Source of the DNA: an uncultured Candidatus Saccharibacteria bacterium
Lineage (GTDB): Bacteria; Patescibacteriota; Saccharimonadia; Saccharimonadales; UBA4665
DNA: 64,000 nt
Direction: 5' to 3'
NCBI GenBank assembly: GCA_964541145.1
Contig: CAZIOX010000006.1
Coordinates: 1,899-65,898 of the forward strand
Below are positions 22,611-54,465 of this stretch, in pieces (the stretch's first letter is position 1; every line of letters starts with the position of its first letter). Under the pieces are notes generated by a model. The model was not told the DNA's origin, ran no database searches, and saw only the letters and a program-made list of their open reading frames with translations. A program made the position numbers and the translations under genes.

Positions 22611-22617
22611 TGTACAT

Positions 22618-23044: not shown

Positions 23045-23240
23045 AAAGTCTATAAATATACCGCCCACTTTGCCGCAATCTTAAGCAAAGAGTCATGTGG
23101 GCACTGACGAATGAAATCGAATTATGTACCGTTCTACTGTACGTCGAAAGATTTATACCAAGGTACAAGGCACACCAATGCCGGTCGTAACTACTGCCGA
23201 TATTCCTTCGGGAAACGAAATAATCGCCATGAGCTGCTAA

Positions 23241-28936: not shown

Positions 28937-29377
28937 TTATTTCGCTCCTTTCAGGCTCAAAGTTTCTGGTTTCTGTGCGGCGTGATTGTGTTCGGCTCCA
29001 GCATAGATTTTCAAACGCGCCAGACGCCCATCACGCAGCTTGTTGACGGGTAGCATGCCGCGGACGGCTTTCATGATGACTTCAGTCGAATCGTTTGCCA
29101 TCAGGTCTTTCAGCTGACGCTCGCGGAGTCCACCTGGAAAACCACTGTGGTTGTAGTACATTTTTTTCTCTTCTTTACCGCCCGTCACTTGCAGATGATC
29201 GGCATTGATTACGACGACAAAGTCGCCACAGTCGATATGTGCAGTAAACATTGGCTTGCCTTTACCGGTGAGCAGTGTGGCGACATGGGTCGCTACACGA
29301 CCTAAGGTTGCCTCGGAGGCGTCAACGACGTACCACTTTCGGGTCACGTCACTGGGTTTTGCGGAATAGGTTTTCAT
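28937..29377 (-). CDS. rplM: 50S ribosomal protein L13
   Basis: MKTYSAKPSDVTRKWYVVDASEATLGRVAT. Confidence 0.95.
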   Translation of the reverse strand: MKTYSAKPSDVTRKWYVVDASEATLGRVATHVATLLTGKGKPMFTAHIDCGDFVVVINADHLQVTGGKEEKKMYYNHSGFPGGLRERQLKDLMANDSTEVIMKAVRGMLPVNKLRDGRLARLKIYAGAEHNHAAQKPETLSLKGAK

Positions 29378-32938: not shown

Positions 32939-34453
32939 TTACTTTTGCTTCCGAGTGGATTTTTTTCGGTGCGGAAGGAACTTGAGCCGCTTTCCTGTCA
33001 CTGCACCCGACTCGCCGCCACCGGCACTGTCGTAGAAAAAGTCGTCTCTACTGTACTGATCATAAGTTATCATGAGGGCACGCGACTCGACGGCACGCAG
33101 TGTTTCGAGCGAGACAGCGACCAAGATCAATATGCTCGTACCCCCGAGACCCACGGCGATATTTGATGGTACAAAGAGCTGCGCCACGATGGGCAACAAC
33201 GCCAGGAGCCCCAGACTAATAGCGCCAAATAAGGTGATCTTGTTGACTGTTTTAGCAAGGTACCGCTCGGTCTGAGAGCCAGAGCGGACTCCTTCCAGGA
33301 AGCCGCCTTGCTTCTGAAGATTTTCGGCGATTTCTTTACTGTTAAACGTAATACTTGTATAGAAAAAGGTGAAAAGAAATACCAGCATAAAGTATGTGAC
33401 AGGATAGATGTAGGCGTGCCAGTCAGCGCTGGCAAATGTCTGAGCAGTCGGACTCTGGAACCAGGTTACCAGGTTTTGCCCTAATTGCTGCCACTGCGCG
33501 TTACTGTGCCCTGTCAAAAGCTGGCCGACGAAGCTCGGTACACTCAGAAAAGCCAGGGCAAAAATGACTGGCACCACCCCAGCAGTAATGAGTTTTACGG
33601 GAAGGGTCGTCGTGACTCCTCCGTAGGCTCGATTACCCTGGACGCGCTTGGCGTAGTTTATAGTAAGCCGACGAGAAGCTTCGTTTAGCATGACGACGAC
33701 CCAGGTTATCAAAATAACTGCCATCAGTATTGCGAGGGCATACCAGAACGACTTTTCATTGATAGGCAGCTCTCGACCAAAAATTTGCCATTTGTTCTGT
33801 TTGTCGTATATGCTTGAGGCGATCTGACTGATGGTGGCTGGTAGCGCGCTTACTATACCTACTGTAATAAGTAGTGAGATACCGTTGCCAACCGATTTTT
33901 CTGTGACAAGCTCACCCATCCACATGAGCAGCATCGAACCACCGGTTAGTGCGGCGACCATCAGGATCCATTGTGAGAGTGATGTGTTGGCAGTAATGTC
34001 GCCAATCCCGCCGACACTTTGAGCGTACTGGCGAACGAGATAAATAGACCCCACTGCCTGGACTATCGCCAGTGGTAAGGTAAGTAACCGAGTATATTGA
34101 TTGATCTTTTTTTGACCAGATTCGCCGTCTTTACGCATGTTTTCGAGTTTCGGAAGTGCTTTAGTGAGCAGCTGCATGATAATACTGGCGTTAATGTATG
34201 GCCCAAGCCCAGCAATCATTATGGAGAAGTTTGCCAGTGCGCCACCACTCAGAACGTTGATGAAGCTCAAAAACTGAGGAGTGTTTTGTGAAGAAAAAAG
34301 ATTTGTCAGCACTTGCTTGAGCGTCTCTGGATCGGCCAGAGGCACGGGTATGTGCGCCAAAATTCGAAATATGAGCAGTATACCCAACACCCCAAAAATA
34401 CGTTTACGCATATCGCCTTGTTTAAACGATGCGCCAATAACCTTCCAGTTCAC
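32939..34453 (-). CDS. secY: Preprotein translocase SecY with ~50-aa C-terminal extension
   Basis: GTG start with a GAGGGG SD. 504 aa and 10 TM helices. The tail reads DQYSRDDFFYDSAGGGESGAVTGKRLKFLPHRKKSTRKQK. Confidence 0.95.
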   Translation of the reverse strand: MNWKVIGASFKQGDMRKRIFGVLGILLIFRILAHIPVPLADPETLKQVLTNLFSSQNTPQFLSFINVLSGGALANFSIMIAGLGPYINASIIMQLLTKALPKLENMRKDGESGQKKINQYTRLLTLPLAIVQAVGSIYLVRQYAQSVGGIGDITANTSLSQWILMVAALTGGSMLLMWMGELVTEKSVGNGISLLITVGIVSALPATISQIASSIYDKQNKWQIFGRELPINEKSFWYALAILMAVILITWVVVMLNEASRRLTINYAKRVQGNRAYGGVTTTLPVKLITAGVVPVIFALAFLSVPSFVGQLLTGHSNAQWQQLGQNLVTWFQSPTAQTFASADWHAYIYPVTYFMLVFLFTFFYTSITFNSKEIAENLQKQGGFLEGVRSGSQTERYLAKTVNKITLFGAISLGLLALLPIVAQLFVPSNIAVGLGGTSILILVAVSLETLRAVESRALMITYDQYSRDDFFYDSAGGGESGAVTGKRLKFLPHRKKSTRKQK

Positions 34454-34494
34454 ACGTAACCCCTCGTTGTTATTTGATAGTGTATCTTTCTGTT

Positions 34495-34523
34495 AGTATA
34501 CACGCTTCGTTTCGGTCTGCAAA
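34495..34523 (-). promoter_or_regulatory. Promoter candidate for secY
   Basis: On the minus strand the sequence reads TTTGCA, 17 nt, TATACT, in the 111-nt gap after the transporter gene. Confidence 0.4.
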
Positions 34524-34564
34524 ACCCACACCTCTGGCAAATGTTCGCTATGTGCGACATGGTT

Positions 34565-35485
34565 TTAGTGCGAGCGCATCACATGGTGATGTTTATGATG
34601 AGACGAATCTTTGTACTGCACGATAAATACGCCCAGCAATATGCAGGTACCGCCGGCCACCATCGCCACCGACATTGTTTCGTGGAGAAATAGTATTGGC
34701 AGCAGTACAGCAACGAGTCCCTCCAAATACACCAGTGCGCTGATTGTGGCCGAACCGATTCGCTCATATGACCAGACAGTCAAAATACGCGAGACGAGTG
34801 AAACGGCCGCAAAACTATATGCAATCGCAAGCAGCCCGCTTGTAGTGATACGTGGCGCTTCCATGTGGCCTATCGACAGCCATAACACGCCGCTCACTGC
34901 CGCAACCACACCGCTCATTGCACCCGTCAGTGCGATGAGCGATACACCATGTACTTGGTTTGCTCTGCTCATCGCAATCGAAACCATGGGGTAACTCAAG
35001 GCATTTATGACACCGCACAGTGTTGCGAAGGGGTAAAACACAAAGGTTCCTTTGTGTTGCAGGGCAAAAGGCAGAAGCGCGACCATCGTTGCTCCGGCTG
35101 CAGCCAGTGTAATCCCTGCAATCGCCCGTCGAGAGACACGCTCGCCATTGAGTTTTACTGAGTACCACACTAACACCACGGGCGAAAGCAGCTGCAAAAT
35201 ACTGACATAACTCGCCTGACTATGCTGTAGCCCTAAAATAAACGCTAAAGATGCAATCGTCATCGCCGCACCAGCTGCCGCTGTCGGGGACAATGCTCGG
35301 CCAAACATAGCCGCGCGTTCACGCCATATCCAAGGCAAACACACTACTGCGACAGCCCCAAATCGTAGTGCATTAAGCAAAAACGGATGCCAGTCTGCAA
35401 CCGCATACCGCATAAACATTGCGTTGGGTGCAGCCAGCAAAACCCCAACCAGCGCAATGATAAACCATGTTTGTTTTGTTTTCAT
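34565..35485 (-). CDS. EamA/DMT-family transporter (10 TM) inserted between rplO and secY
   Basis: I moved the start to ATG 35485 (MKTKQTWFIIALVGVLLAAP). The protein shows two repeats of five hydrophobic helices and ends in a His-rich tail (KDSSHHKHHHVMRSH). Confidence 0.75.
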   Translation of the reverse strand: MKTKQTWFIIALVGVLLAAPNAMFMRYAVADWHPFLLNALRFGAVAVVCLPWIWRERAAMFGRALSPTAAAGAAMTIASLAFILGLQHSQASYVSILQLLSPVVLVWYSVKLNGERVSRRAIAGITLAAAGATMVALLPFALQHKGTFVFYPFATLCGVINALSYPMVSIAMSRANQVHGVSLIALTGAMSGVVAAVSGVLWLSIGHMEAPRITTSGLLAIAYSFAAVSLVSRILTVWSYERIGSATISALVYLEGLVAVLLPILFLHETMSVAMVAGGTCILLGVFIVQYKDSSHHKHHHVMRSH

Positions 35486-35550
35486 GCTATGTCCAGTATA
35501 GCACCACGCAACTCCAAACTCGATATGATGGCGAACACGGTAGAGACAGA

Positions 35551-35603
35551 ACACGCCCAGTGTGATGTACGAGGTCTAACCTCGTACATCACACTGGGCG
35601 TGT
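35551..35603. other. Perfect 24-bp hairpin (5-nt loop) upstream of the transporter gene
   Basis: acacgcccagtgtgatgtacgagg, tctaa, cctcgtacatcacactgggcgtgt. Confidence 0.9.
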
Positions 35604-37896: not shown

Positions 37897-37907
37897 TATG
37901 ATTTAGA

Positions 37908-37975
37908 GTTAAGAAGTATGAGTTATGAGTTAAGAGTTTTATGCTCTTATCTCTTTTCTCTTATCTCTTATCTCT
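37908..37975. repeat. Imperfect inverted repeat built from GAGTTAAGAG / CTCTTATCTC motifs
   Basis: The arms are gagttaagaagtatgagttatgagttaagag and ctcttatctcttttctcttatctcttatctct, with about 22 of 31 positions pairable and a perfect inner 9/10 stem. The motif is the same as in the repeats flanking the four-helix-bundle gene at 53.4-53.8 kb. Confidence 0.7.
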
Positions 37976-38113
37976 CCTTTCCTTTAGTTTACGATTCTTA
38001 TTCATGGAACGTATTATACCGGCCACTGCTCCTGCTATAATTACTGCCCCGAGTAAAATTCCAATAAATGCTTCTTGTCGAACATTATCCATAGCAGTCG
38101 TGGCAAAGTACAT
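37961..38113 (-). CDS. Small membrane protein candidate (50 aa, 1 TM) between rpsH and rplF
   Basis: My hand translation is MYFATTAMDNVRQEAFIGILLGAVIIAGAVAGIIRSMNKNRKLKERRDKR followed by a stop. The ATG lies 4 nt after the rpsH stop, and no SD is seen. Confidence 0.4.
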   Translation of the reverse strand: MYFATTAMDNVRQEAFIGILLGAVIIAGAVAGIIRSMNKNRKLKERRDKR

Positions 38114-38117
38114 AGTA

Positions 38118-38519
38118 TTAGTACACTTGGCAGATTAATTCTCCGCCAACTCCTTGTGCTTTAGCTTCTTCACCGGTCATTAAACCCTTACTCGTTGAAA
38201 TGATGAGCACGCCACGACCTCGTTTGACCTGTGGTACTTCGCGGGCATTTGTGTAGGCGCGGCGACCAGGCTTGCTGAGGCGTTTGATTTCTGTAATCTT
38301 GGCGTTTTCGCCGTCTAGATTGATGGTGATGTGGAGTCGCTTGCCAACAGTAAGGTCTTCGGTGCGAACATCGTGCAGGAAGCCGTTGTTACGCAAGGAA
38401 ATTGCCACATTTTCTTTAATCTTACTGTGCGGTAAGCTTACCTCGTTTTTGCCGACGGCAATTGCGTTGCGGACACGGGTGAGCATGTCGGATATAGGAT
38501 CGGTAGTCGTTACGCTCAT
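38118..38519 (-). CDS. rpsH: 30S ribosomal protein S8
   Basis: MSVTTTDPISDMLTRVRNAIAVGK. Confidence 0.95.
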   Translation of the reverse strand: MSVTTTDPISDMLTRVRNAIAVGKNEVSLPHSKIKENVAISLRNNGFLHDVRTEDLTVGKRLHITINLDGENAKITEIKRLSKPGRRAYTNAREVPQVKRGRGVLIISTSKGLMTGEEAKAQGVGGELICQVY

Positions 38520-38617
38520 ACGTTATCTCCTTTCTGATTTAGCAGAGAGCAGGTAGTAGATGGCAGAAATGCAGCATCCTGATACTTGTTATCTGAAGAA
38601 TGAAGTAAAGCGTTCAT
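38516..38617 (-). CDS. Bridging micro-ORF (33 aa), S14 stop to S8 start
   Basis: My hand translation is [33 protein letters not shown] followed by a stop. Its ATG overlaps the rpsN TAA (TAATG) and its TGA overlaps the rpsH ATG (ATGA). Confidence 0.3.
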   Translation of the reverse strand: MNALLHSSDNKYQDAAFLPSTTCSLLNQKGDNV

Positions 38618-38886
38618 TACCAGCTCGCTTTCGTTACACCAGGGATTTCGCCCTTGCTTGCATGTTCACGGAAGGACAAACGGCTCAGGCCGAACTGTCG
38701 CATGTAAGCATGTGGTCGGCCGGTTTCGACACAGCGGTTCTTCTTACGGGTCGGTGAAGAGTTGCGTGGCAGTTTCGCCAAACCTTCGTAATCACCAAGC
38801 TCTTTCAGTTCTTTACGCTTCGCAGCGTACTGCTCTATCATCTTCAGGCGTTTTTTATCGCGGGCTAGGTTCGATTTTCGTGCCAT
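38617..38886 (-). CDS. rpsN: 30S ribosomal protein S14, long Cys-poor form (89 aa)
   Basis: I moved the start to ATG 38886 ([20 protein letters not shown]). The C-terminus is [27 protein letters not shown]. Confidence 0.9.
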
Positions 38887-38996
38887 TATATAGCTCCTTT
38901 CAGTCGTAGAGTCATGAAGCATGAAGCACCAGTCATGAAATCTGCTTTGCAGCTGGTAACCATACCTTGTCTCTTGTTTCTTGTCTCTTGTCTCAT
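38886..38996 (-). CDS. Bridging micro-ORF / 111-nt repeat element copy 1 (36 aa), L5 stop to S14 start
   Basis: My hand translation is [36 protein letters not shown] followed by a stop. It has an ATGA overlap with the rplE stop and a TAATG overlap with the rpsN start. It is about 80% identical, without gaps, to 43527..43637. Confidence 0.4.
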
Positions 38997-39592
38997 TTTG
39001 ATTCCTTTTCAAACGGCATACCAAACTTCTGCAGCAGTGCCTTACTGTGAGCCTTGTCTTCGCACTTCACGACAAATACAGCTTGCAAGCCGTGCGGCGT
39101 GGTCGTTTCCTCAAAGGTCAGCTCCGGGAAGACGCTCTGATCGGTCAGGCCAATACTGTAGTTCCCTTGCTTGTCAAATGCTTTTAGTTTCACCCCGCGG
39201 AAGTCGCGCAGACGCGGAAGTACGATGTTGATGAGTCTGTCCATAAACTCGTACATTCGCTCGCCCCGTAGTGTCAATCTTAACCCAATCATATTGCCTT
39301 CGCGCAACTTAAAGCCGGCGATAGAGTTTTTTGCGACGGTTTCAACTGGTTCCTGACCAGTGACTTTACGCAGCGTGTTTTTGGCGGCTTCAATCGTCTT
39401 CTTGTCTTCTTTGGCTCGACCAAGACCGACATTGACTACAATTTTTTCGAGCTTCGGCACCTGATGGGCGTTTTTCAGCCCAAGCTCTTTCATAAGCTCT
39501 GCCGCAAACTTCTCGTTGTACTCATTTTTCAGACGAGCAACATACGGTTTTATTGCCTTCTTGGGAGCAGGTTTTTTTGTCGTTTCAGCCAT
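38993..39592 (-). CDS. rplE: 50S ribosomal protein L5
   Basis: [39 protein letters not shown]. Confidence 0.95.
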
Positions 39593-39963
39593 TATAGTAC
39601 CTTCGCTCCTTTCTTAGTCGCAGGCTTCTTTGCTAGAACTTCGACCTTGATTTCCTTGCCGGTTGCCTTGTAGATGCGGGTTTTGCCGCCATCTTTATCG
39701 AGCGTGTAGCCTATGCGTGTTGGCTTCTTGGTGCTTGGATCGACCACAGCAACCTTGCTTACCCAAATAGGTTTCGTAATCTCTAGAATACCGCCTTGCG
39801 GATGTGCTTGGTTCGGCTTCTGGTGCTTTTTGACGATGTTTATACCTTCGACAGTCACCTTATTTTCGGCAGCGTGCGTGGTCAGGACCTTGCCTTGTTT
39901 GCCCTTGTACTTGCCGCTCAGAACTTGTACTACATCACCCTTCTTTAGTCGTATCTTGTACAT
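39592..39963 (-). CDS. rplX: 50S ribosomal protein L24 (possible 12-codon N-terminal extension to 39999)
   Basis: MYKIRLKKGDVVQVLSGKYKGKQGKV starts at ATG 39963. An in-frame ATG at 39999 overlaps the rplN stop (TAATG) and would add [12 protein letters not shown]. Confidence 0.9.
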   Translation of the reverse strand: MYKIRLKKGDVVQVLSGKYKGKQGKVLTTHAAENKVTVEGINIVKKHQKPNQAHPQGGILEITKPIWVSKVAVVDPSTKKPTRIGYTLDKDGGKTRIYKATGKEIKVEVLAKKPATKKGAKVL

Positions 39964-39998
39964 TTTCTTGTCTCTTGTTTCTTGTCTCTTGCTTGTCA

Positions 39999-40367
39999 TT
40001 ACAGTACCTCCGGTGCAAGGCTGATGATTTTGGCATAGCCCATGTCGCGCAGTTCGCGAGGTACCGGTCCAAAAATACGTGTTGCCTTTGGCTGCTTGTC
40101 GTCACCGACAATGACCGCTGCATTATCGTCAAACTTTATGGTGCTGCCATCTTTACGCTTGATTTCTTTCGTGGTGCGTACCACTACGGCACGTACCACT
40201 GATTTCTTTTTTACCCCACCACTTGGGTTCGCTTGCTTGACCGTGGCGGTTATGATGTCACCCACTCGAGCATATCGCCGACGCGTTCCACCAAGCACAC
40301 GTATGCAGAGAATTTCCTTGGCGCCGCTATTGTCGCAGACGACGAGGCGCGTTTCTTGCTGAATCAT
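39999..40367 (-). CDS. rplN: 50S ribosomal protein L14
   Basis: [27 protein letters not shown]. Confidence 0.95.
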
Positions 40368-40480
40368 TATTTGGCTCCTTCTAGTCGCAGAATCATGCAG
40401 CTTGAGTCTTGAGACAGGACAGCTGTTTTAGGGCTGAGAAGCGTTAACCGATGAGACATACTGCTTGATTTGTCATTCAT
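40367..40480 (-). CDS. Bridging micro-ORF (37 aa), S17 stop to L14 start
   Basis: My hand translation is [37 protein letters not shown] followed by a stop. It has ATGA and TAATG overlaps. Its 3' 30 nt resemble the 111-nt elements. Confidence 0.35.
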
Positions 40481-40788
40481 GATTCAGTCTCCTTTTTTGG
40501 CTTATCAGTTACGCCTGGCACTTCTACGGCAGCTTCGACGTGCTTCACTTCGGCAGTTTCAATGATGGATTGCAATGTAAACCTTTTTCGCTTGCTGATT
40601 GGTCGTGTTTCGACCACCACCACCTTGTCGCCGAGCTTTGCTTCGTTCTTTTCGTCATGCGCGATAAACTTTTTGCTCGTAGTATATTGCTTTCGGTAAA
40701 GCGGATGGGTCTTTTTCTCACGAACGGTAATGACAATGGTCTTGTCTGACTTGTCGCTGGAGACGACACCGGTAATTGTCTTGGCCAT
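40477..40788 (-). CDS. rpsQ: 30S ribosomal protein S17
   Basis: GVVSSDKSDKTIVITVREKKTHPLYRKQ. Confidence 0.95.
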   Translation of the reverse strand: MAKTITGVVSSDKSDKTIVITVREKKTHPLYRKQYTTSKKFIAHDEKNEAKLGDKVVVVETRPISKRKRFTLQSIIETAEVKHVEAAVEVPGVTDKPKKETES

Positions 40789-40988
40789 TATTTTGCCTCC
40801 TTGACTAGGTTATCGCTTAAGACGGTCAGCATACGAGCAAGATCCTTGCGCTTATTGCGAACGGTTCGCACATTTCGGTTGTCACCCATGTAAATGTGGC
40901 GACGCAGTTCGGCTATTTCGTCTTTTAACTTGGTTGTTTCTTTCGTGAGCTCAGCCGTGCTGAGTTTGCGAATATCAGCAATTTTCAT
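40788..40988 (-). CDS. rpmC: 50S ribosomal protein L29
   Basis: [35 protein letters not shown] overlaps occur at both ends. Confidence 0.9.
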   Translation of the reverse strand: MKIADIRKLSTAELTKETTKLKDEIAELRRHIYMGDNRNVRTVRNKRKDLARMLTVLSDNLVKEAK

Positions 40989-41401
40989 TATGCGCCCTCC
41001 TTCACCAAGAATTTTGTCTTTACGGGCAATTTATGACTTGCTAGACGCATGGCTTCTCGGGCGGTTTCTTCCGAAACGCCTTGCATTTCAAACAGCACCG
41101 TACCGGGTCGTACTTTGGCCACGAAAAACTCTGGGCTTCCTTTGCCACTACCCATTTTGACGTCAAGTGGCTTACGGGTAACTGGTGTATGCGGGAAAAT
41201 TCTGATCCAGATTTTGCCACCACGCTTGATATAGCGAGTCATGGCCTGACGGCTTGCCTCGATCTGTCGGCTCGTAATGCGTTCGTGCCCTTGTGCCTGC
41301 AGTGCGTATTCACCGTAAGCAATGTAGTTTCCAGCTGTCGCCACTCCACGAACTTTGCCTTTGCGAACTTTGCGGAATTTGGTTCTCTTTGGTAGTAACA
41401 T
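40988..41401 (-). CDS. rplP: 50S ribosomal protein L16
   Basis: I moved the start to ATG 41401 ([19 protein letters not shown]). Confidence 0.95.
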
Positions 41402-41402
41402 C

Positions 41403-42029
41403 TTAGTTTTCCCCCTTGTAGATCCAGACCTTGACGCCGATAACGCCGGCAATGGTCTGAGCCTGTACGCTGGCGAAGTCAATATTGGCACGGATAGTGT
41501 GCAGTGGCACTGACCCAACCGCTTCTTTTTCGCGACGTGACATTTCTGCGCCGTTCAAGCGACCAGCCACTTCTATACGCACACCCTTTGCGCCAGCGCG
41601 CATGGTAGCGGCGCTCGCACTTTTAATTGCTCGGCGGAAACTCATACGGCGTTCGAGCTGATGAGCAATGTTCTCGGCGACAAGCTTTGCATACATCTCT
41701 GGTTTTTTGACTTCCTCGATGTTGACACGAGCTGGTACGGCATAGATTTTTTCGATAGCTGCTTTGAGCTCCTGGGCACCTTGGCCACCACGGCCAATCA
41801 CCACACCAGCCTTGGCCGTTGCGATAGTGACTGTCACGAGGTTCGGTGAGCGCTCTATATCTACTTTATTGATTGCGCCACGTGAACCAAACTTGGCTTG
41901 GATTAGCTTGCGAACCTTGAGATCTTGAGCGAGGTAGTCAGCGTACTGACGCTTGCCAACGAACCACTTACTTCGCCAATCTTTGTTGGCCTGCAAGCGC
42001 ATAGAAATAGGATTTACTTTCTGGCCCAT
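41403..42029 (-). CDS. rpsC: 30S ribosomal protein S3
   Basis: [23 protein letters not shown]. Confidence 0.95.
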
Positions 42030-42418
42030 TACTTGCTCTCCTTCTTTACAGTCGGTTTCTCGACTGCTGGTTTTTTAGCAGGTCGTTGCTCGCCGTCTAC
42101 GAGTACGCGGATGTGTGAGGAACGCTTCATATAGGGCAATGCTCGCCCCATAGCCGCCGGTCGGAAACGCTTCATGCGAGGGCCATGATTTACTGTGATT
42201 TCAGTTATACGAAGTGTGTCTGCCTTGTAGTTGTGATTATGGGCAGCATTTGCCTGTGCACTTTTGACCGTCTTTAGAACGGATAGTGCAGCGCGGCGTG
42301 GGGTGTGTTCAAGGATAACGATGGCGTCTGCAACCGTGCGGCCACGAATGAGTGCCGCAACTGCTGCAACCTTACGTGGGCTCAAACGAACGCCTTTAGC
42401 TTCTGCTTTTACACTCAT
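42029..42418 (-). CDS. rplV: 50S ribosomal protein L22
   Basis: AKGVRLSPRKVAAVAALIRGRTVADAIVILEHTPRRAA. Confidence 0.95.
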   Translation of the reverse strand: MSVKAEAKGVRLSPRKVAAVAALIRGRTVADAIVILEHTPRRAALSVLKTVKSAQANAAHNHNYKADTLRITEITVNHGPRMKRFRPAAMGRALPYMKRSSHIRVLVDGEQRPAKKPAVEKPTVKKESK

Positions 42419-42420
42419 GT

Positions 42421-42693
42421 CTATTTGCCCTTCGCTAACTTCCCGCCATGAGAGCGGAACTTACGGGTTGGGCTGAATTCGCCCAGTTTGTGACCAACCA
42501 TGTTTTCTGTCACGAAAACTGGTACATGCACCTTACCATTATGAACGGCAAAAGTTTTGCCAACAAAGTCCGGTGCAATCGTGCTGGCACGCGCCCAAGT
42601 TTTTATAATGGTGCGATCCTCTGAGCCAAGCGCCGCAACTTTTTTCGCGAGCTTCGGATCGATAAATGGCCCTTTCTTCAGTGAACGACTCAT
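42421..42693 (-). CDS. rpsS: 30S ribosomal protein S19
   Basis: [19 protein letters not shown]...[17 protein letters not shown]. Confidence 0.95.
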
Positions 42694-42696
42694 AGC

Positions 42697-43527
42697 TTAT
42701 TTCCTCTTGGCCGCGTGGCGGCTTCTTACGATCATATTGCTTGTACTCTTACGTCGGCGCGTCTTAAACCCAAGTGTCTTCTGACCCCAAGGGGTACGAG
42801 GCGCTTTGGCCATACGGTGACGACCACCATCACCACCACCGTGCGGGTGATCGACTGCGTTCATGACGACACCACGGACACCAGGGCGCTTTCCCAGATG
42901 ACGGTTGCGGCCGGCTTTACCAATTTTGACATTTTGGTGCTGTTCATTGCCTACGACACCGACAGAGGCAGTGCACACGAGCGCAACTTTCCGAACCTCA
43001 CCACTCGGCATGCGTACCTGGGCATAGTCACCTTCTTTTGCCATCAACATAGCACTGTTGCCGGCACTGCGGACAGCTTGGGCGCCACGACCAGGCTTGA
43101 GTTCGAGTGCGTGAATGGTGGTGCCAACTGGTATATTTTTAAGCGGTAGCCGGTTGCCCATCTCAATAGCGGCCTCGGCGTGAGCTACAAGCTTTTGACC
43201 CTGATGCATGCCACCAGCTGCAAGCACATAGTGGTAGACACCTTTGTCGTCTTTGACGCGGGCAATACGAGCACTGCGGTTGGGATCGTATTCGATGTGT
43301 TCGACAACGCCTTCACCAGAAAAACTGAAGTTTACCACTCGGTAGTGCCGACGGGCACCACCGCCCTGGTGGCGAGTCGTTATGCGACCCTGGTTATTGC
43401 GACCACTGCCGCGCTTCATACTTTTTACAAGTGAGCGTACAGGTTTTTTAGTCGTCACGCCAGAGAAATCTTGACTAGACATACCGCGTCGACCTGGAGT
43501 CGTTGGGTTGTACTGTTTAATCGCCAT
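42697..43527 (-). CDS. rplB: 50S ribosomal protein L2
   Basis: I moved the start to ATG 43527 (MAIKQYNPTTPGRRGMS). Also present: VMNAVDHPHGGGDGG. Confidence 0.95.
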   Translation of the reverse strand: MAIKQYNPTTPGRRGMSSQDFSGVTTKKPVRSLVKSMKRGSGRNNQGRITTRHQGGGARRHYRVVNFSFSGEGVVEHIEYDPNRSARIARVKDDKGVYHYVLAAGGMHQGQKLVAHAEAAIEMGNRLPLKNIPVGTTIHALELKPGRGAQAVRSAGNSAMLMAKEGDYAQVRMPSGEVRKVALVCTASVGVVGNEQHQNVKIGKAGRNRHLGKRPGVRGVVMNAVDHPHGGGDGGRHRMAKAPRTPWGQKTLGFKTRRRKSTSNMIVRSRHAAKRK

Positions 43528-43637
43528 TATGCAGCTCCTTTCAGTCGCAGAGTCATGAAGCATGAGTTACGAGTCATGACAGATGCCATGCAGATGTTCT
43601 CTAGTTCTTGTCGGCTGTCTCTTGTTTCTTGTCTCAT
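43527..43637 (-). CDS. Bridging micro-ORF / 111-nt repeat element copy 2 (36 aa), L23 stop to L2 start
   Basis: My hand translation is [36 protein letters not shown] followed by a stop. It has an ATGA overlap with the rplW stop and a TAATG overlap with the rplB start. Confidence 0.4.
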   Translation of the reverse strand: MRQETRDSRQELENICMASVMTRNSCFMTLRLKGAA

Positions 43638-44059
43638 TTTGATTCCTTCTTACCGACGAGTTTTTTCAGACCCTTCGGCTTGGATACGTTTTCTTCAGAC
43701 TTTTTGTCTGCTTTCTTCGCAGCTTTGGCCTTTTCAGCTTCAGCTTTGGCAAGTTCTTCTTCGGCCGCGGCAAAAAATGGCAAATGGCTTCCGGCTTCCA
43801 GGGTCACATAGGCTTTTTTGGTGTCGGGCTGTGTACCTTTGCGATTGCTGCTGCGTTTGCCAGTTGTATTCATGACGCGCTTTACTTTGCCCTTGCGATT
43901 GACAACTCGAACGCTTTGTACCTTGACGTCAAACTGCTTTTCAACCGCATCTGCCACTTCGTATCTGTTGATTTCACTTGGGATGTCAATAACAAAGGTG
44001 TTCGTCGTTTGGCTTAGACCAAAGGCCTTCTCACTCAGTCGTGGTTTGAGAGTATGCAT
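43634..44059 (-). CDS. rplW: 50S ribosomal protein L23 with K/A/E-rich C-terminal extension
   Basis: I moved the start to ATG 44059 (MHTLKPRLSEKAFGLSQ), 1 nt after the rplD stop. Confidence 0.9.
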   Translation of the reverse strand: MHTLKPRLSEKAFGLSQTTNTFVIDIPSEINRYEVADAVEKQFDVKVQSVRVVNRKGKVKRVMNTTGKRSSNRKGTQPDTKKAYVTLEAGSHLPFFAAAEEELAKAEAEKAKAAKKADKKSEENVSKPKGLKKLVGKKESK

Positions 44060-44060
44060 A

Positions 44061-44720
44061 TTATTTCTCCTCCTTCGCGACTTTTGCGACTGGCTTGAGC
44101 CAAGATTCAACTGTTTTAAGTGCATCGGTCGTCAGCACAATGTGGTCGGCATTCAAAATGTCGAATACGTTGAGGTAGCTGGCGCTCACCAGCATGACAT
44201 TTTGGAGGTTAGCAGTCGCGTTTACGAGTTCTGGTGTTTTACTATCCACGACGACGAGAGCGTCGCGCGTGACACCGAGTTTGATGAGCAGTTTTGCCAT
44301 TTCGGCAGTTTTACCTTCTTTGCTCGAAAGTTTTTCGACGACAATGAGTTTGCCATTTTGATTGGCTAAGCTCAGTGCCTGTCGCAGCGCCACGCGCTTG
44401 CTGGTAGTGGAAATCTTGACAGTGTAGTTTTCTAGTCCAGTAGGACCAAAGACAATACCACCGCCACGCCAAATTGGGTTGCGTGAGCTACCGAAACGCG
44501 CCCGACCGGTGCCCTTCTGCTTCCATGGCTTCTTACCGCCACCACGAACGAGTCCACGAGTTTTTACGACGGCGAGATTCTCGCGACCATTTGCAAGATA
44601 CGCATCATAGGCTTGTTTGAGTAACTGATGGTTTTTTACTTCCACGCCGAACACTTCACGGCTTAGTTTGGCTGCGGTTGCAGCTTTGGTGCCTGCAGCA
44701 CTAAATGTAGGAGTAGCCAT
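44061..44720 (-). CDS. rplD: 50S ribosomal protein L4
   Basis: [29 protein letters not shown]. Confidence 0.95.
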
Positions 44721-44869
44721 TAGAACGCACCTCCTTTTTGGATTAGCGTGTCACCTCTGACCTGTGTGGTAACAGTAGTAATGAACCTGTCACTATTGGT
44801 GCGAGATTCATGACTAATGGTTACAGGCGAATGTTTGGTGACAGGTAACAGGGAAATGGATAATTTCAT
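44720..44869 (-). CDS. Bridging micro-ORF (49 aa), L3 stop to L4 start
   Basis: My hand translation is MKLSISLLPVTKHSPVTISHESRTNSDRFITTVTTQVRGDTLIQKGGAF followed by a stop. The ATG lies 2 nt after the rplC TAA, and the TAA overlaps the rplD ATG (TAATG). Confidence 0.3.
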   Translation of the reverse strand: MKLSISLLPVTKHSPVTISHESRTNSDRFITTVTTQVRGDTLIQKGGAF

Positions 44870-45492: not shown

Positions 45493-45745
45493 AGTTTTGC
45501 ACCACGTCATATGCTACCAGATGACGTGCTCCTTTATGGTTAATATTTGTCGAACGGCTGCTTTTTGGATCTTGTACACTGATACAAAAAACGTGGTGGT
45601 CGACGGTTTCTACCCCTGTTACGAGCGGACCTTTCCGACATCACCAACACAACGAGTGTTCGTACGTACCTTACAGATTACCATGTAAAGATAACACCTG
45701 TCAACCTGTTGTATAAACTACATGATCTAAGCGGTCAAACACTGC

Positions 45746-46066
45746 CTATAGCGTTATAAAAAGTCCAAACGGAGCCAAGAACCCAAAAAATCCCGCTATG
45801 ATCAATACGGCAATTTCTATACGCCGTTCCATCCGAAAATGTTCGTGAGAGGCAAAAAACAGCCCTACGGCTAAACCAATCGGCAGAGGTACGTGCAAGT
45901 TGCTGCCAGTTTTTGTTATTTTGATCCACAGAGATGCCAAGATAACATACAAGGTTAGTTTTAGCACAAAAGCTCCATCGCTGTTTGAAGTCTTTTTGCT
46001 AGCAGGTTTTTTTGAGGCGGCAACCTTAGAAACAGATTTTGTACCATTTTTTTTGTTTTTGTTCAT
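45746..46066 (-). CDS. Small membrane protein, 106 aa, K-rich N-terminus, about 3 TM
   Basis: MNKNKKNGTKSVSKVAASKKPASKK is followed by LTLYVILASLWI, LPIGLAVGLFFA and IAVLIIAGFFGFLAPFGLFI. Confidence 0.6.
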   Translation of the reverse strand: MNKNKKNGTKSVSKVAASKKPASKKTSNSDGAFVLKLTLYVILASLWIKITKTGSNLHVPLPIGLAVGLFFASHEHFRMERRIEIAVLIIAGFFGFLAPFGLFITL

Positions 46067-46148
46067 CTACAAACAGTATACCAGGTCATCACTCTCATCT
46101 CAAGGCATTGACGCTTACCAGTTATGAGACTACCCACACCTGCGTGGA

Positions 46149-47657
46149 CTAGGCGGCTCTATCAAGTAGCTCGTCGAGTTCATACGACTTTTGTTTCGAG
46201 TAGCCGATAATGCCGGCGCCGATGTTGTTGACGCGTTTCTGTATACACTTCAGCCCTCCCAATCGTTCTCCGCCTACCTTGTAGCCGTCATGTGAAGCGC
46301 GTTTGCCGACACGAGCACGGTGACGATCGGCTCTTGTTTGAATCATGATCTCGACTGGCGTGCCATCGAAGTCAATTGCAGCCTTGACAACTCGAAATTC
46401 TTTTTTATGCGTTCTTAGATCCTCTTTGATCGTACTGACATCGAGTCCAACTTCGCACATCTCATTTTTGATTGTTTCGATATAGGCCTTGTCGCCACGA
46501 ACATCGAGACCGGCTACGGTTGGGTCGTTCGACGCCAGGGTGGCATGGTTGCTTTCATAAATGTTTAGCTGCATTTGGCAGAATACATCACAGAGCTGCG
46601 TCATATTATCTACGACAATAGTCAGCCCAACCATGTCCAGCACTTTTTGTCCTGGTCGCTTAAACATTTTCATGGCATATGATCCGAGCGATTTTCGTCT
46701 CCAAACCACTTGAAACGGATCCTCACCCTGTATATCACGCTGGAGCCTAGATTCACCGACAATGATGTCGTGGTCGGTGTTATCTTCAAAGCAGTGTTTG
46801 CTGACGAGAGAACCGCCAAATATGTCGTGTAGAACGCTATCGACGATCTGTAGGGTTTCCTTGCGATCATACGGCTCAAGTCTCTTTTGAGCTTCCTCGA
46901 CAACACTGTGTAGACCCAGCTTTTTGAGACGAAGCACGTTTGCGGCGCTCCTGAGAGCCATTGCAACACCATCAAAGCCCATTGCTTCGTTTATCTTTGC
47001 AAACACCTGGGAGTCAAAAATGTGACGGAGAATCGTTGTGTCTTTGCGCGCTGGCGTTTTCAGCCTATCGATATGCCTGATAGATTCTTTATTAACTGCT
47101 TCGACATTCACGTGATTCAACATGGCATCAATACGTTCAAGGGGCGCGGGAGGCAAGTCAAAGTTCCATAGCGCCTTTGAGACAGGTTCATCATCGTTTG
47201 AGTCGATAATGCTTGCGATCTCTGTTCCTTGTAGTGTGTGGTCACGGATTACATCGAGATGCGTACGAAGCTCTCGACCGTCAACCAAAAAAGCAGCTGT
47301 TTTACGCCATCGTTTGGGTGGTTGAGTACTCCGATATTCACGCAATGCTTGTATTGCCAGTGTCTGCTCACTAACCTCAATTTCTGAGCTTGGCTGGCTC
47401 ATTACCGCTTCACCGATCGCCTGGAGTAGCGTAGCCCGCTTAATACCCTTTCCAATGCCCTTTCCATCGCTAAAATCGCATAATTCTACATACGTACGTA
47501 GTGTATATTGCAAAATACGCAGCGCTGAATCTGGATCATTGAGTTCATCCGTGTAGCCTACGAGTGTTTTCACCTCTGGGAGAAAGTCAGGTGCGACGTG
47601 CTCAAGCGAGGCCACTACGCCTTCTGTACCAGGCAGATCAAACCTTGAAATAGCCAT
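46149..47657 (-). CDS. Divergent RelA/SpoT-like (alarmone-synthetase-fold) nucleotidyl/pyrophosphotransferase with a ~330-aa unknown N-terminal region
   Basis: The C-terminal third carries synthetase-type blocks: RRKSLGSYAMKMFKR (R-x-K-x3-S-x3-K), LDMVGLTIVV (D-x2-G), PVEIMIQTR (the EIQIRT equivalent) and ASHDGYK (H-x2-YK). The GY-x-S-x-H block is replaced by EFRVVK. No HD hydrolase motif is seen. Confidence 0.65.
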   Translation of the reverse strand: MAISRFDLPGTEGVVASLEHVAPDFLPEVKTLVGYTDELNDPDSALRILQYTLRTYVELCDFSDGKGIGKGIKRATLLQAIGEAVMSQPSSEIEVSEQTLAIQALREYRSTQPPKRWRKTAAFLVDGRELRTHLDVIRDHTLQGTEIASIIDSNDDEPVSKALWNFDLPPAPLERIDAMLNHVNVEAVNKESIRHIDRLKTPARKDTTILRHIFDSQVFAKINEAMGFDGVAMALRSAANVLRLKKLGLHSVVEEAQKRLEPYDRKETLQIVDSVLHDIFGGSLVSKHCFEDNTDHDIIVGESRLQRDIQGEDPFQVVWRRKSLGSYAMKMFKRPGQKVLDMVGLTIVVDNMTQLCDVFCQMQLNIYESNHATLASNDPTVAGLDVRGDKAYIETIKNEMCEVGLDVSTIKEDLRTHKKEFRVVKAAIDFDGTPVEIMIQTRADRHRARVGKRASHDGYKVGGERLGGLKCIQKRVNNIGAGIIGYSKQKSYELDELLDRAA

Positions 47658-47902
47658 ACTTATATTTTAGCATACTATCCTGATTTTGTCCAGTTTCTAT
47701 ATCCGTCCACCATACATTGGACTGTTGTATTGGTAATCGTAACAAGTCCTATAAGTTCAGATTAGCTTTTTTGGCACTGAGCCCTAGGTAGCACATAGCA
47801 CGCGTCAAATGATCCCATATGACCTGATTCTCATCAAATAAAATGGAAGACAGTATCCATACTCATAAACTTGAGAAATGTTCATGTAAGATGCTATGTG
47901 TA

Positions 47903-48346
47903 TCATAGTTGTTTCTGGTATTCATCACCCAATCTCTTACTGGGCATGTAGCCAAATGAACGGAGTAAGTCTCTCATCCCAACTCTTTCTTCTTCTACGC
48001 TTGCACGCACAATATTGGTTCCACTAGCCAGTGCCGCCGCCTCGATCGCTTCTAGAAGGTTTTTTGCCCGACCTTCGCGCTGGTTTTTTGGGTTCGTGGC
48101 TAAGAACACTATTTCCAATGCCTCACCTATTGTATGGGTGGCCGCAGCAGCAGCTGTGACACACCCACTTGTTGGATCTTCCACTATAAATAAATCTGTA
48201 GCGACACATTCTCCAAGGGTTCTTAATAGACCTTCGTCCATCCCAAACGGCTCACGGAAAAGTTCGAGTACACCATTAAAAAGGTTTTGATCCGTTAAAA
48301 ATTTTTCGGAGCCAATATTTTTGACAACTGAATTTAATTCAGACAT
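47903..48346 (-). CDS. GNAT-family N-acetyltransferase, 147 aa
   Basis: The acetyl-CoA motif-A-like block is IVFLATNPKNQREGRAKNLLEAIEAAA (Q/R-x-x-G-x-A). Confidence 0.65.
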   Translation of the reverse strand: MSELNSVVKNIGSEKFLTDQNLFNGVLELFREPFGMDEGLLRTLGECVATDLFIVEDPTSGCVTAAAAATHTIGEALEIVFLATNPKNQREGRAKNLLEAIEAAALASGTNIVRASVEEERVGMRDLLRSFGYMPSKRLGDEYQKQL

Positions 48347-48449
48347 GAAACTTATTGTATCATGTTTTTTTATTTTTGTCTACTAAACTGCCTATATGAC
48401 GCGTACCGGCTATTGTCTTTACGCAAGCTTTTCGTGTTTTCCAAGAATG

Positions 48450-48782
48450 TTACATCTTGATTTCGACGTCGCAGCCAGCGGGGAGGGAGAGGTTCATGAG
48501 GCTGTCGATGGTCTTTGGAGTCGGTTCAAACACGTCGATGAGGCGCTTGTGGACGCGCATTTCGAACTGTTCACGGCCTTTTTTATAGACGTGCGGGCTT
48601 TTTACCACCGTAAAGGTACTTTTGCGCGTGGGTAGTGGTATAGGTCCAGCAAGGCTAGCGCCAGTGCGCAAGGCTGTGTCGACAATCTGCTTGGCTGCTT
48701 GGTCAATGATTTTGTGGTCGTAGGCCTTCAGGCGTATACGAATACGTTGTTTGCCTGTTGGTGCTTGGGTGGCGTCTGCCAT
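48450..48782 (-). CDS. rpsJ: 30S ribosomal protein S10
   Basis: [41 protein letters not shown]. Confidence 0.95.
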
Positions 48783-53362: not shown

Positions 53363-53374
53363 AGAAGCTCCTTG

Positions 53375-53404
53375 GAGTTAAGAGATAGGAGATAAGAGAT
53401 AAGA
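53375..53404. repeat. Inverted repeat, left arm (3 nt from the stop of the four-helix-bundle gene)
   Basis: gagttaagagataggagataagagataaga. 28 of 30 positions match the reverse complement of 53774..53803. Confidence 0.9.
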
Positions 53405-53407
53405 CTC

Positions 53408-53773
53408 TTATTTCGTACCATTTGTTTTGTTAATTAAGCCTGTTAGTACTTTGTGGCACGCTATGCTCGCTTCATCCAGCTCTTGGTATACATGATTTTG
53501 TATATAGCGAACGTCCTTTGCCACCAATAGCTGCGCTTGAACCTCATGCAATGAAGCCCGCGCCATATCGTAAAAGTGCGTTCGATCTGCCATAGTTCTT
53601 CGGCCAAATCCTTCTGCTATATTCGAAACAATTGATACGGTTGATCGCCGGATTTGATTGGTAAGACCGAAAATCTCATCTTTTGGAAAATCTTTGGTAA
53701 TCTTATAGATTTCTAAAGTTAAAGCATGTGACTTTTGCCAAGCAATGAGGTCTCGAAATGTATGGATGCTCAT
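53408..53773 (-). CDS. Four-helix-bundle protein of the '23S rRNA intervening-sequence protein' family
   Basis: FRDLIAWQKSHALTLEIYKITKDFPKDEIFGLTNQIRRSTVSIVSNIAEGFGR matches the family signature (W-Q-K-A, Q-x-R-R-A-x-x-S-I-x-x-N-I-A-E-G). 121 aa. Confidence 0.8.
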   Translation of the reverse strand: MSIHTFRDLIAWQKSHALTLEIYKITKDFPKDEIFGLTNQIRRSTVSIVSNIAEGFGRRTMADRTHFYDMARASLHEVQAQLLVAKDVRYIQNHVYQELDEASIACHKVLTGLINKTNGTK

Positions 53774-53803
53774 TCTTAACTCTTATCTCATATCTCTTAA
53801 CTC
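53774..53803. repeat. Inverted repeat, right arm (abuts the ATG of the four-helix-bundle gene)
   Basis: tcttaactcttatctcatatctcttaactc. Confidence 0.9.
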
Positions 53804-53818
53804 TACTCTTTTGCGGCT

Positions 53819-54298
53819 TTAGCCCCTAGCAAAATGCGCGAACGCACGGTTCGCTTCGGCCATGCGGTGGGTGTCTTCACGCTTTTTCACTGCACTGCCC
53901 TGGTTGTTGTAGGCGTCCATGAGTTCTAGAGCGATGCGGTCAGCCATGCTCATGCCTTTACGGGCGCGGGCAGCAGCTACGAACCACATCGTAGTGAGGT
54001 GGTTTTGACGCTGACCCTTTACCTCAAATGGAATCTGGTAGTTGGCACCACCGACACGGCGAGAGCGAGTCTCGACATTGGGGCGGATGTTACTGAAAGC
54101 CTGCTCGAACACGTCGAGTGGGTTGTCTACCTTTAGTTTTTTGGCAGCAGTTTCCATGCCCGTGTAGACGAGGCGTTCGGCGACTTGCTTTTTACCATCG
54201 CGCATAACGCGGTTTATCAGCCGCTGCACGGGTACGCTGTTGTACACGCGGTCAGCGGGAATATCACGAACAAGTGAGGCGGTTACTTTCCTAGGCAT
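53819..54298 (-). CDS. rpsG: 30S ribosomal protein S7
   Basis: MPRKVTASLVRDIPADRVYNSVPVQRLINRVMRDGKK. Confidence 0.95.
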   Translation of the reverse strand: MPRKVTASLVRDIPADRVYNSVPVQRLINRVMRDGKKQVAERLVYTGMETAAKKLKVDNPLDVFEQAFSNIRPNVETRSRRVGGANYQIPFEVKGQRQNHLTTMWFVAAARARKGMSMADRIALELMDAYNNQGSAVKKREDTHRMAEANRAFAHFARG

Positions 54299-54465
54299 TA
54301 TTTTTTTCCTCCATTTTTCATTTGGGCAACAATTTTGTCTGACTCTGACACAATAGCCACACCGATAATCACCCCTAGAACACGTACCATGTCTGAGACA
54401 GCGAGCAGCGAAACGGCGACAACTATAGCAGCACCTAAGAATACAATAAGGTACTTAGCGTTCAT
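54298..54465 (-). CDS. Small 2-TM membrane protein B (55 aa) between rpsL and rpsG
   Basis: My hand translation is MNAKYLIVFLGAAIVVAVSLLAVSDMVRVLGVIIGVAIVSESDKIVAQMKNGGKK followed by a stop. AAGGAG lies 8 nt upstream of the ATG. The TAA overlaps the rpsG ATG, and the last codons carry the GGAGG SD for rpsG. Confidence 0.55.
   Translation of the reverse strand: MNAKYLIVFLGAAIVVAVSLLAVSDMVRVLGVIIGVAIVSESDKIVAQMKNGGKK

Follow-up and report, generated by a model that had tools for sequence, protein, structure and literature searches.

Short repeats with bridging open frames at ribosomal-protein gene junctions in Saccharibacteria and their probable relation to a PF05635 cassette

Two 111-nt elements in the S10-spc ribosomal-protein operon of a Saccharibacteria (TM7) genome belong to a family of short repeats that is found at nine gene junctions on nine contigs, and whose occupancy varies between close relatives. 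We studied a 64-kb stretch of contig CAZIOX010000006.1 (hereafter, the window), the minus strand of which carries this operon in the order L3, L4, L23, L2, S19, L22, S3, L16, L29, S17, L14, L24, L5, S14, S8, L6, L18, S5, L15, EamA-type gene and SecY. The two elements lie between L5 and S14 and between L23 and L2 (junctions are written with the upstream gene first, as in L5>S14). Taken as a whole, the explanation that we favor is a fairly likely one: both elements and the spacer at S17>L14 would be decayed copies of a Saccharibacteria-specific, non-autonomous repeat family. As judged from their sequences, the elements probably keep the neighboring genes translationally linked, and they are probably miniatures, lacking the open reading frame (ORF), of a cassette in which arms made of heptamers flank a PF05635 gene.

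Element A, at L5>S14 (38886..38996, minus strand), and element B, at L23>L2 (43527..43637, minus strand), are both 111 nt long and align without gaps with 86/111 identical positions (77.5%), or 80% over 126 nt with the flanks. The initial annotation of this DNA had described the pair as paralogs of about 80% identity, an estimate that is slightly high and survives formal alignment. It had also described a common 5′ end, ATGAGACAAGARACAAGA, a common 3′ end, TCATGCTTCATGACTCTRCGACTGAAAGGAGCT..ATAATG, and a divergent middle, all of which are seen in the two sequences. What it stated about the sequence proved correct in each instance. Each element is a 36-codon mini-ORF that bridges the flanking genes. 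The ATG of element A overlaps the L5 stop codon (ATGA) and its TAA overlaps the S14 start (TAATG); element B is joined by the same two overlaps to the L23 stop and the L2 start. L5 and L23 both finish in the 15-mer AAGGAATCAAAATGA (38993..39007 and 43634..43648, respectively, minus strand), an identity that had been recognized before as a shared K-E-S-K-stop ending. The K-E-S-K codons of L5 hold a Shine-Dalgarno (SD) sequence, AAGGA, with a 6-nt spacer to the mini-ORF of element A, and the L23 end likewise provides the SD for element B. The same 15-mer also precedes the S5>L15 copy of the family on contig L089.

On the mRNA strand, a family copy begins with an ATG on the upstream stop codon, followed by four GAGACAA heptamers, a central hairpin of 6–7 bp (CAGnnGC-loop-GCnnCTG), four 3′ heptamers, GCGACTGAAAGGAGC, a further 5–7 nt and TAATG. 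The segment GCGACTGAAAGGAGC is a strong SD that lies at the element’s 3′ end, and the mini-ORF ATG (in ATGA or TAATG) is served by an SD in the last codons of the upstream gene. In element A, the four 5′ GAGACAA heptamers lie at 38967-38994, the decayed central hairpin at 38939-38955, the four 3′ heptamers of TCATGAC type at 38909-38938 and the 3′ module ACGACTGAAAGGAGC at 38893-38907, with the SD AAGGAG at 38894-38899. The corresponding parts of element B are at 43608-43635, 43580-43596 (a decayed central region), 43550-43579 and 43534-43548 (3′ module GCGACTGAAAGGAGC), all again on the minus strand. The CATGA/TCATGA motifs that had been pointed out in the 3′ half are thus the four 3′ tandem heptamers (TCATGAC). 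The 19-mer AGACAAGAAACAAGAGACA has four matches in the window against 0.04 expected (38968-38986, 38975-38993, 39969-39987 and 43616-43634), and the match at 39969-39987 confirms that the 5′ module recurs in frame with L24.

We built a hidden Markov model (HMM) of the family from seven 111-nt copies outside the window, leaving out the window copies. The model scores element A at E = 6.4e-29 and element B at E = 2.3e-27, far beyond what chance would give, and it identifies a third member, element C, at S17>L14 (40367..40480, minus strand; E = 5.4e-13, model positions 39-113), a bridging mini-ORF of 37 codons that is joined to its neighbors by ATGA and TAATG. Element C is an older and more diverged member, with family sequence recognizable only in its 3′ two-thirds; the matching stretch, 40365-40439, bears out the degenerate 3′ module that had been suspected upstream of rplN. 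No further full copy was found with the model in the 64-kb window, where the other matches are weak (E 3e-4 to about 9) and nearly all fall on heptamer arrays or SD segments at other junctions (S8>L6, L14>L24 and the PF05635 arms). Searching the window for the 3′ module CGACTGAAAGGAGC with three mismatches gave 11 matches against 6 expected; three are the element copies and the rest are SD-like chance matches. One candidate, at L13>S9 (28937-28963), was ruled out as a family copy, being an ordinary SD inside the L13 C-terminus (nhmmer E = 1.6).

Altogether, the family has 14 members on 9 contigs, distributed over three operons (S10-spc, alpha/L13-S9 and atp). The nine junctions are L23>L2, L5>S14, S17>L14, S5>L15, S13>S11, L13>S9, L3>L4, atpH>atpA and, with the 3′ module only, S14>S8 of L006. 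All 14 members lie between co-directional genes in a single orientation, and 13 of them form a mini-ORF that links the flanking genes, nearly always through ATGA/TAATG overlaps. A scan of metagenome DNA with a 24-nt pattern of the 3′ module returned only two matches, at L13>S9 (L081) and atpH>atpA (L082); both copies are longer, at about 150 nt, and each closes with TAATG at the start of the downstream gene. More productive was a profile search with the mini-peptide, which found six further called ORFs and led to contigs L083-L086 (L5>S14), L087 and L088 (L13>S9 and S13>S11), L089 (S5>L15) and L090 (L3>L4). L083 holds three copies (L23>L2, L5>S14 and S5>L15) that are 95-96% identical among themselves, the S13>S11 and L13>S9 copies of L087 are 93% identical, and the copy in L086 is at L5>S14. 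The 5′ ATGA/TAATG and 3′ TAATG overlaps are present in elements A, B and C and in nine of ten copies elsewhere, the exception being the L082 copy, which begins 18 nt after the atpH stop. With the same family at nine junctions on nine contigs, and with occupancy that differs between relatives, the earlier suggestion of a small repeat that has spread between r-protein junctions holds. We found no description of such elements in Saccharibacteria in the literature.

The occupancy was assessed with a map of every operon junction in 14 related loci and the window. A scan of S3 proteins with one genome per species recovered close relatives in Saccharibacteria only, the best being L009 with 90% S3 identity, and the metagenome contig L083 is as close to the window as L009. 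The default spacing between genes is −4 to +5 nt, and spacers of about 100-160 nt are sporadic and placed at differing junctions. In the window, long spacers are at L3>L4, L23>L2, S17>L14, L5>S14, S14>S8, S8>L6 and S5>L15; in L009, they are at S19>L22, L22>S3, S3>L16, L29>S17, S14>S8 and S8>L6; and in L060, they are at L3>L4, L23>L2, L22>S3, S8>L6, L18>S5 and S5>L15. Where the window has elements, relatives whose r-proteins are about 90% identical show tight overlaps, and the converse is also seen. For example, S17>L14 and S14>S8 are tight in L083 where the window has spacers, and at S5>L15, L083 holds a copy of the family and the window an unrelated spacer. Empty sites are plain TAATG or ATGA overlaps of the form ...AAGGAG-N7-TAATG..., with the SD within the last codons of the upstream gene, and filled sites read ...AAGGA-N6-ATG[element]...AAGGAGC-N5-7-TAATG.... 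Comparison of filled with empty sites shows that the ATG and the SD-N7-ATG are repeated at both ends of the element, where both are also functional signals. The copies group by genome and not by junction: each window copy has about 85% identity to the L083 copies, and the two share only 77% with each other. Grouping of this kind is the pattern that independent decay from a common source would give.

In all 12 full-length copies, frame 0 has no internal stops, compared with 4-5 stops in frame 1; the mini-ORF begins on the upstream stop in all but one of these copies, and in every one it closes with TAATG at the downstream start. Copies with broken frames in non-bridging contexts, which the initial annotation had proposed to look for elsewhere, are absent from these 12, which come from a sample centered on r-protein genes; this outcome favors that annotation. 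The 3′ heptamer carries a TGA that, with a 7-nt period, comes into frame once per three units. The third 3′ heptamer is always without this TGA, by way of two different changes (TGC or TAC). A parallel case is found in the L009 family, where the sole TAG that would otherwise be in frame reads CAG.

The same plan of 5′ tandem heptamers, inverted 3′ heptamers and an SD, often with GCGAC before it, is seen in many spacers that are unrelated in sequence to the 111-nt family. We counted a spacer as bridging when a frame opens no more than a few nucleotides from the upstream stop and closes on the start of the next gene, and derived the expectation from shuffles of the interior that keep 6 nt at each end. 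Among spacers of at least 60 nt, 22 of 32 bridge the flanking genes as against 3.3 expected (P ~8e-19), and in a larger set of 52 spacers, 18 of the 28 clusters contain bridging members. The open bridging frame thus occurs far beyond chance across many unrelated families.

A longer relative of these elements is found at S7>EF-G in the window (53363..53818, minus strand). It is made up of a heptamer arm on the 5′ side (53774-53818), a 121-aa ORF (53408-53773) for a PF05635 ‘23S rRNA intervening-sequence protein’ (Avd-like; E 1.8e-36), and a 3′ inverted heptamer arm followed by the SD AAGGAG before the EF-G ATG (53363-53407), all on the minus strand. The two arms can form a 28-bp duplex (−39 kcal/mol) and, when joined without the ORF, align with the hairpin of the window S8>L6 spacer. 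The PF05635 gene is kept at S7>EF-G in many Saccharibacteria, and the cassette layout recurs in L092, L095, L096, L098 and L102. We considered whether the gene is fixed at this site and rejected this, because a homolog of 60% identity lies at atpG>atpD in another lineage, also within inverted heptamer arms; the gene is therefore not limited to one site. In L096 and L102, the arms are of the GAGACAA/CTCATGA type and are followed by GCGAC..AAGGGAGC. The 3′ half of the 111-nt family HMM matches the PF05635 3′ flank in L102 (E = 2.4e-9) and L096 (E = 3.4e-7), and the 5′ heptamers match the 5′ flank at E ~1e-3. By these profile matches, the family arms are homologous to the flanks of the cassette, and because the model matches both flanks, the 111-nt elements look like the two cassette arms without the ORF. 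Among the sequences examined, which did not extend to searches of whole genomes, no autonomous relative with a transposase was found, and the only longer relative carries the PF05635 four-helix-bundle ORF.

These matches allow a broader and more speculative idea, to which we give a low but not negligible probability. The heptamer-armed hairpins could be one mobile system whose full-length form carries the PF05635 gene, such that the same kind of element as the rRNA intervening sequences colonizes highly expressed mRNA junctions (S7>EF-G, atpG>atpD and those between r-protein genes). The PF05635 protein might act on the arms in mobility, protection or processing, and the ORF-less miniatures might have become self-neutralizing translational bridges.

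For the 111-nt family itself, we propose that the elements would insert at a start codon or stop-start overlap between co-directional genes of highly expressed operons. Ribosomes that end the upstream r-protein gene would re-initiate on the mini-ORF, translate through the weak, mismatched hairpin, terminate on the TAATG and re-initiate on the downstream gene with the aid of the element’s SD, and the peptide would be a by-product. Termination-reinitiation coupling, according to the account of it given in PMC10666635, requires overlaps or very short gaps. An insertion of about 110 nt built in this way would keep the translational coupling and would therefore be tolerated. The SD...ATG repeated at both ends could, in addition, serve recombination during spread. 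The initial annotation had offered a mobile coupling cassette as one of two options, and this option gains support from the spread and the open bridging frames that are seen here, from which we infer the coupling and a mechanism of mobility.

Several other explanations have to be weighed against this one. The open frame in all copies, the recurrence of N- and C-terminal peptide motifs and the annotation of several copies as hypothetical proteins by gene callers would suit a selected family of small proteins, for example ribosome-associated peptides, duplicated within the operon. We regard this as very improbable, because substitutions ignore codon position, as they would where the peptide is not selected: the 25 differences between elements A and B fall on codon positions 1/2/3 as 8/9/8, the variable columns of the family do so as 12/13/15, and the two window copies differ from the consensus by 5 synonymous/15 non-synonymous and 6/11 changes, which matches random expectation. 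No codon-level selection on the peptide was found. The conserved ends of the peptide are the heptamers and the SD read in frame, and the GCGAC..AAGGAG module, read as LRLKGA in the 111-nt family and as ATKRS/ATERS in the L060 family, is conserved at the nucleotide level since it is read in different frames. In addition, unrelated families yield unrelated peptides at the same type of site, and neither presence nor position is conserved in close relatives. Pairing of the conserved GCGAC with the 3′ tail of 16S rRNA was also considered; it is unlikely, as it would lie beyond the mature 3′ end.

The elements might also be cis-acting RNAs, either an r-protein autoregulatory leader or a hairpin for RNase III, processing or stability, with the open frame incidental. 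The central stem covaries: compensatory changes (CTG/CAG, TCG/CGA, TTG/CAA and TAG/CTA) occur across genomes, 93.9% of cells are paired with 9 cells changed on both sides, and 0/500 shuffles reach this. Folding of the copies that are less decayed is moderately better than that of shuffles (z = −2.2 to −4.2), and related families form long stems (z down to −5.4), with z-scores for both based on mononucleotide shuffles, which are slightly less conservative than the test used for the window copies. The 28-bp arm duplex of the PF05635 cassette also resembles RNase III targets in 23S rRNA intervening sequences (PMC4990558). A purely structural role, however, leaves the excess of bridging frames unexplained, and the occupied junction shifts between close relatives, unlike that of a dedicated regulator of a given gene. 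The 3′ heptamers, (T)CATGAC(T)/CATGACTC, pair with GAGACAA at 5/7 positions per unit and leave A.A mismatches, which makes the arms a poor RNase III substrate. An Rfam scan of the whole window at the gathering threshold returned four tRNAs only, with no match to an r-protein leader or regulatory RNA and no rRNA, and the elements therefore belong to no known RNA family in that database. Given also that the window copies are stemless and fold like shuffles, we find an RNA-structural role, including the duplicated regulatory RNA that was the other option of the initial annotation, unlikely as the main explanation. RNA processing and bridging need not exclude each other and could go together, especially in families with strong stems. 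The comparison of RNA covariation with codon-level conservation that had been suggested for these elements thus finds covariation in the central stem and no selection on codons.

The same copies could also have arisen without mobility, if local duplication or gene conversion acted on junctions with pre-existing SD-N7-ATG homology and heptamers also slipped; relatives would then differ by loss. This would account for the grouping of copies by genome (95-96% identity within L083 and 93% within L087), for the upstream 15-mer AAGGAATCAAAATGA that travels with the window copies, and for the SD...ATG motif of empty junctions at both copy ends, which gives homology for recombination. Set against it are the spread over three operons (S10-spc, alpha/L13-S9 and atp), nine junctions and 9 contigs, the existence of several sequence-unrelated families that are equally sporadic, and the match of the arms to a gene-carrying cassette elsewhere. 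We consider this origin improbable. It differs from the spread of a repeat family mainly in mechanism, because recombination between SD-ATG motifs would still be intragenomic spread.

A number of observations weigh against the reading of these elements as mobile translational bridges. No transposase, target-site duplication or donor was identified for the elements in the sequence examined. The ATG and SD repeats at the ends could reflect target duplication, recombination homology or functional constraint, and grouping by genome is compatible with gene conversion inside L083 as well as with transposition. The open frame of elements A and B taken alone is not significant when substitutions are placed at random from the consensus (P = 0.41 and 0.46), and the case for the frame therefore rests on many families. 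Bridging is not universal in the wider class, since 10 of the 32 spacers do not bridge, including a GAGATAA family with TAA in every frame. The central stem has been lost in both window copies, which explains why the differences between them lie mainly in the middle and why neither folds better than shuffles: in single-sequence folding of elements A, B and C, none was better than its shuffles (z = −0.5 and +1.7 for the window copies A and B). Plain in the consensus, the inverted ends are weak in both window copies (z about 0). Mini-ORF translation and its effect on the downstream gene are both deduced from sequence features. Finally, most related loci were retrieved through r-protein genes or through mini-ORFs already called by gene callers, and non-genic copies are therefore under-sampled; the checks blind to context were the DNA-pattern scan of metagenomes, with two matches that both bridge, and nhmmer searches over about 330 kb of sequence.

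Other spacers in the window follow the same or a similar plan. A solo 5′ array of GAGACAA-type heptamers (39964..39999, minus strand) stands immediately behind the TAATG start downstream of L14. It is in frame with L24 and is most likely read as a 12-residue N-terminal extension of that protein; its ATG has the SD GGAGG 6 nt upstream, and heptamer arrays are present at L14>L24 in L009 and L083 as well. The L3>L4 junction holds a bridging element of another family (44720..44869, minus strand) with arms CCTGTCAC/GTGACACG and a 49-codon mini-ORF ending in TAATG, which folds well (z = −3.9) and has relatives at L22>S3 in L009 and L3>L4 in L060. At S14>S8, a bridging 33-codon mini-ORF (38516..38617, minus strand), with TAATG at its start and ATGA at its end, is a singleton in sequence. 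A bridging 31-codon mini-ORF with ATGA at both ends occupies S5>L15 (36138..36233, minus strand), a junction that has a 111-nt family copy in L083 and L089 and is empty in L009. The S8>L6 spacer (37897..38117, minus strand) has stops in all frames and does not bridge; it contains a 50-aa ORF at 37961-38113 and then a GAGATAA/TTAACTC heptamer hairpin at 37897-37975 (z −3.1). Across the window, bridging mini-ORFs are essentially limited to the S10-spc operon, the few other matches being non-ATG and inside or beside unrelated genes, and heptamer arrays of at least three units all lie within the r-protein or str operons.

Small hydrophobic ORFs accompany some of these spacers. The 50-aa ORF at S8>L6 (37961-38113, minus strand), MYFATTAMDNV...IIAGAVAGIIRSMNKNRKLKERRDKR, has a predicted membrane helix; a different, 36-aa hydrophobic bridging ORF is found at S8>L6 in L083, and S8>L6 is the junction that most often has a non-bridging spacer across the relatives. 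The S12>S7 spacer (54299-54627, minus strand, 329 nt) contains two hydrophobic ORFs on the minus strand, one of 57 aa that starts on the S12 stop (54455-54628) and one of 72 aa that ends on the S7 start (54298-54516). At the same junction, relatives have unrelated heptamer-type bridging elements or nothing. In L060, the 3′ module CCCTGCGACCGAAGGGAGCC is inside the S17 frame just before the ATGA overlap with L14 (~9446-9557, S17>L14), as if an element had been taken up as a C-terminal extension of S17, and both L5 and the S19>L22 spacer have 5′ ends made of GAGTCAA heptamer arrays.

Further features of the window were noted. The gap of about 2.9 kb (45511-48449) between S10 (48450-48782, minus strand) and L3 (44872-45510, minus strand) is unusual for an S10 operon and contains three non-ribosomal ORFs, all on the minus strand: one for a GNAT acetyltransferase (47903-48346), one of 502 aa that has no match in Pfam (46149-47657) and one of 106 aa that is hydrophobic (45746-46066). 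The gene for an EamA-type transporter (329 aa; 34565-35603, minus strand) lies between L15 and SecY, with a perfect 25-bp hairpin at its 5′ end (35551-35603) that overlaps the predicted start by 4 nt. A 36-codon ORF (34450-34560) begins 4 nt past the stop of this gene and overlaps the SecY start, and L010 and L026 likewise have spacers of about 1.1-1.2 kb at the L15-SecY junction. On the plus strand, a 158-nt unit is present as 2.3 perfect tandem repeats at 22683-23047, starting within the tRNA at 22618-22700 of a cluster at 22392-22700. A 28-nt palindromic unit, TATACCTATCGGGTACGACCCGATAGGT, occurs twice, 40 nt apart, upstream of rpoB (63336-63403, plus strand) and may be a small repeat or a pair of terminators.

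The closest known analog of the 111-nt elements is the mycobacterial interspersed repetitive unit (MIRU), which they would resemble in their way of working, with no homology claimed. MIRUs typically form tandem units, known as variable-number tandem repeat loci, whereas here there is one unit per site, with internal inverted arms of 7-nt repeats and a central hairpin. As presented in the summary of Supply et al. 1997 in PMC12548453, MIRUs are short, apparently mobile operon repeats that insert at start codons in the orientation of the genes, with an ORF coupled to the downstream gene by a stop/start overlap; in the same summary, this coupling is interpreted as reducing the impact of the insertion on expression. 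Both are thus intergenic operon repeats in gene orientation, with an ORF that overlaps the flanking stop and start codons, and the proposed working principle is the same. The elements described here differ in phylum and sequence, carry a strong SD of their own (GCGACTGAAAGGAGC), occur mostly in the ribosomal-protein, str and atp operons, and match the flanks of the PF05635 cassette.

Similarities to other known repeats are more partial. Rickettsia palindromic elements (RPEs) are palindromic repeats of about 100-150 bp that are compatible with translation, with copies surviving in expressed coding sequence (PMC10969869). Only the N-terminal array of L24 and the apparent C-terminal fusion in L060 S17 behave like such in-frame insertions; RPEs, however, are fusions inside genes, and most of the elements here are separate mini-cistrons with both overlaps and their own SD. 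Kinship in sequence with RPEs is not expected. The intervening sequences of 23S rRNA are hairpins, optionally with a PF05635 ORF inside, that RNase III excises, and have been described as selfish and sporadic (PMC4990558, PMC11270868); the Avd protein of diversity-generating retroelements is a homolog of PF05635 (PMC10053308), and short insertions without homing-endonuclease genes have been reported in rRNA genes of Saccharibacteria (PMC11270868). The cargo-bearing relatives are similar to intervening sequences in having a long stem of inverted ends around a PF05635 ORF in a very highly transcribed unit, and the 111-nt elements would correspond to the ORF-less hairpin form of about 100 nt. In contrast to intervening sequences, which are found in helix 25/45 of 23S rRNA, these elements are in mRNAs at gene junctions, have arms of tandem heptamers, and a subset would be translated through. 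[quoted passage not shown] Here, no related insertion sequence with a transposase, no REP-associated tyrosine transposase and no clear target-site duplication was seen in the sequence examined. The orientation is strictly single, and a bridging ORF with both overlaps is not a general feature of MITEs or REP-type repeats.

The interest of these findings is in the family and the wider class; the copies in the window are themselves old and have decayed. The decay of these copies, the SD in the K-E-S-K ends, the unrelated families of the same architecture and the match to the PF05635 arms had not been seen in the initial annotation. Ribosomal-protein operons are among the most conserved and tightly packed gene arrays, and their stop/start overlaps are thought to enforce balanced synthesis of r-proteins. 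In an organism with a strongly reduced genome, they appear to have been invaded repeatedly by repeats of about 110 nt, and the invaders that persist hold just the signals by which ribosomes would pass from gene to gene: they start on the stop codon of the gene upstream, stay open in frame, supply a strong SD and stop on the start codon of the gene downstream. For annotation, this means that ‘hypothetical proteins’ of 30-50 codons in these operons are repeat-derived, and that apparent N- or C-terminal extensions of L24, L5 and S17 may be absorbed repeats. If the proposed mechanism is true, the family would offer, from a distant phylum, an independent example of the strategy suggested for MIRUs, along with a natural experiment on translational coupling repeated at many junctions. 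The match to the PF05635 flanks is a lead on the biology of rRNA intervening sequences and on a widespread protein family of unknown function. If the heptamer-armed hairpins and the PF05635 gene do form one mobile system, this would provide the first functional context for a very large protein family of unknown role and would link the rRNA intervening sequences to the life cycle of a mobile element.

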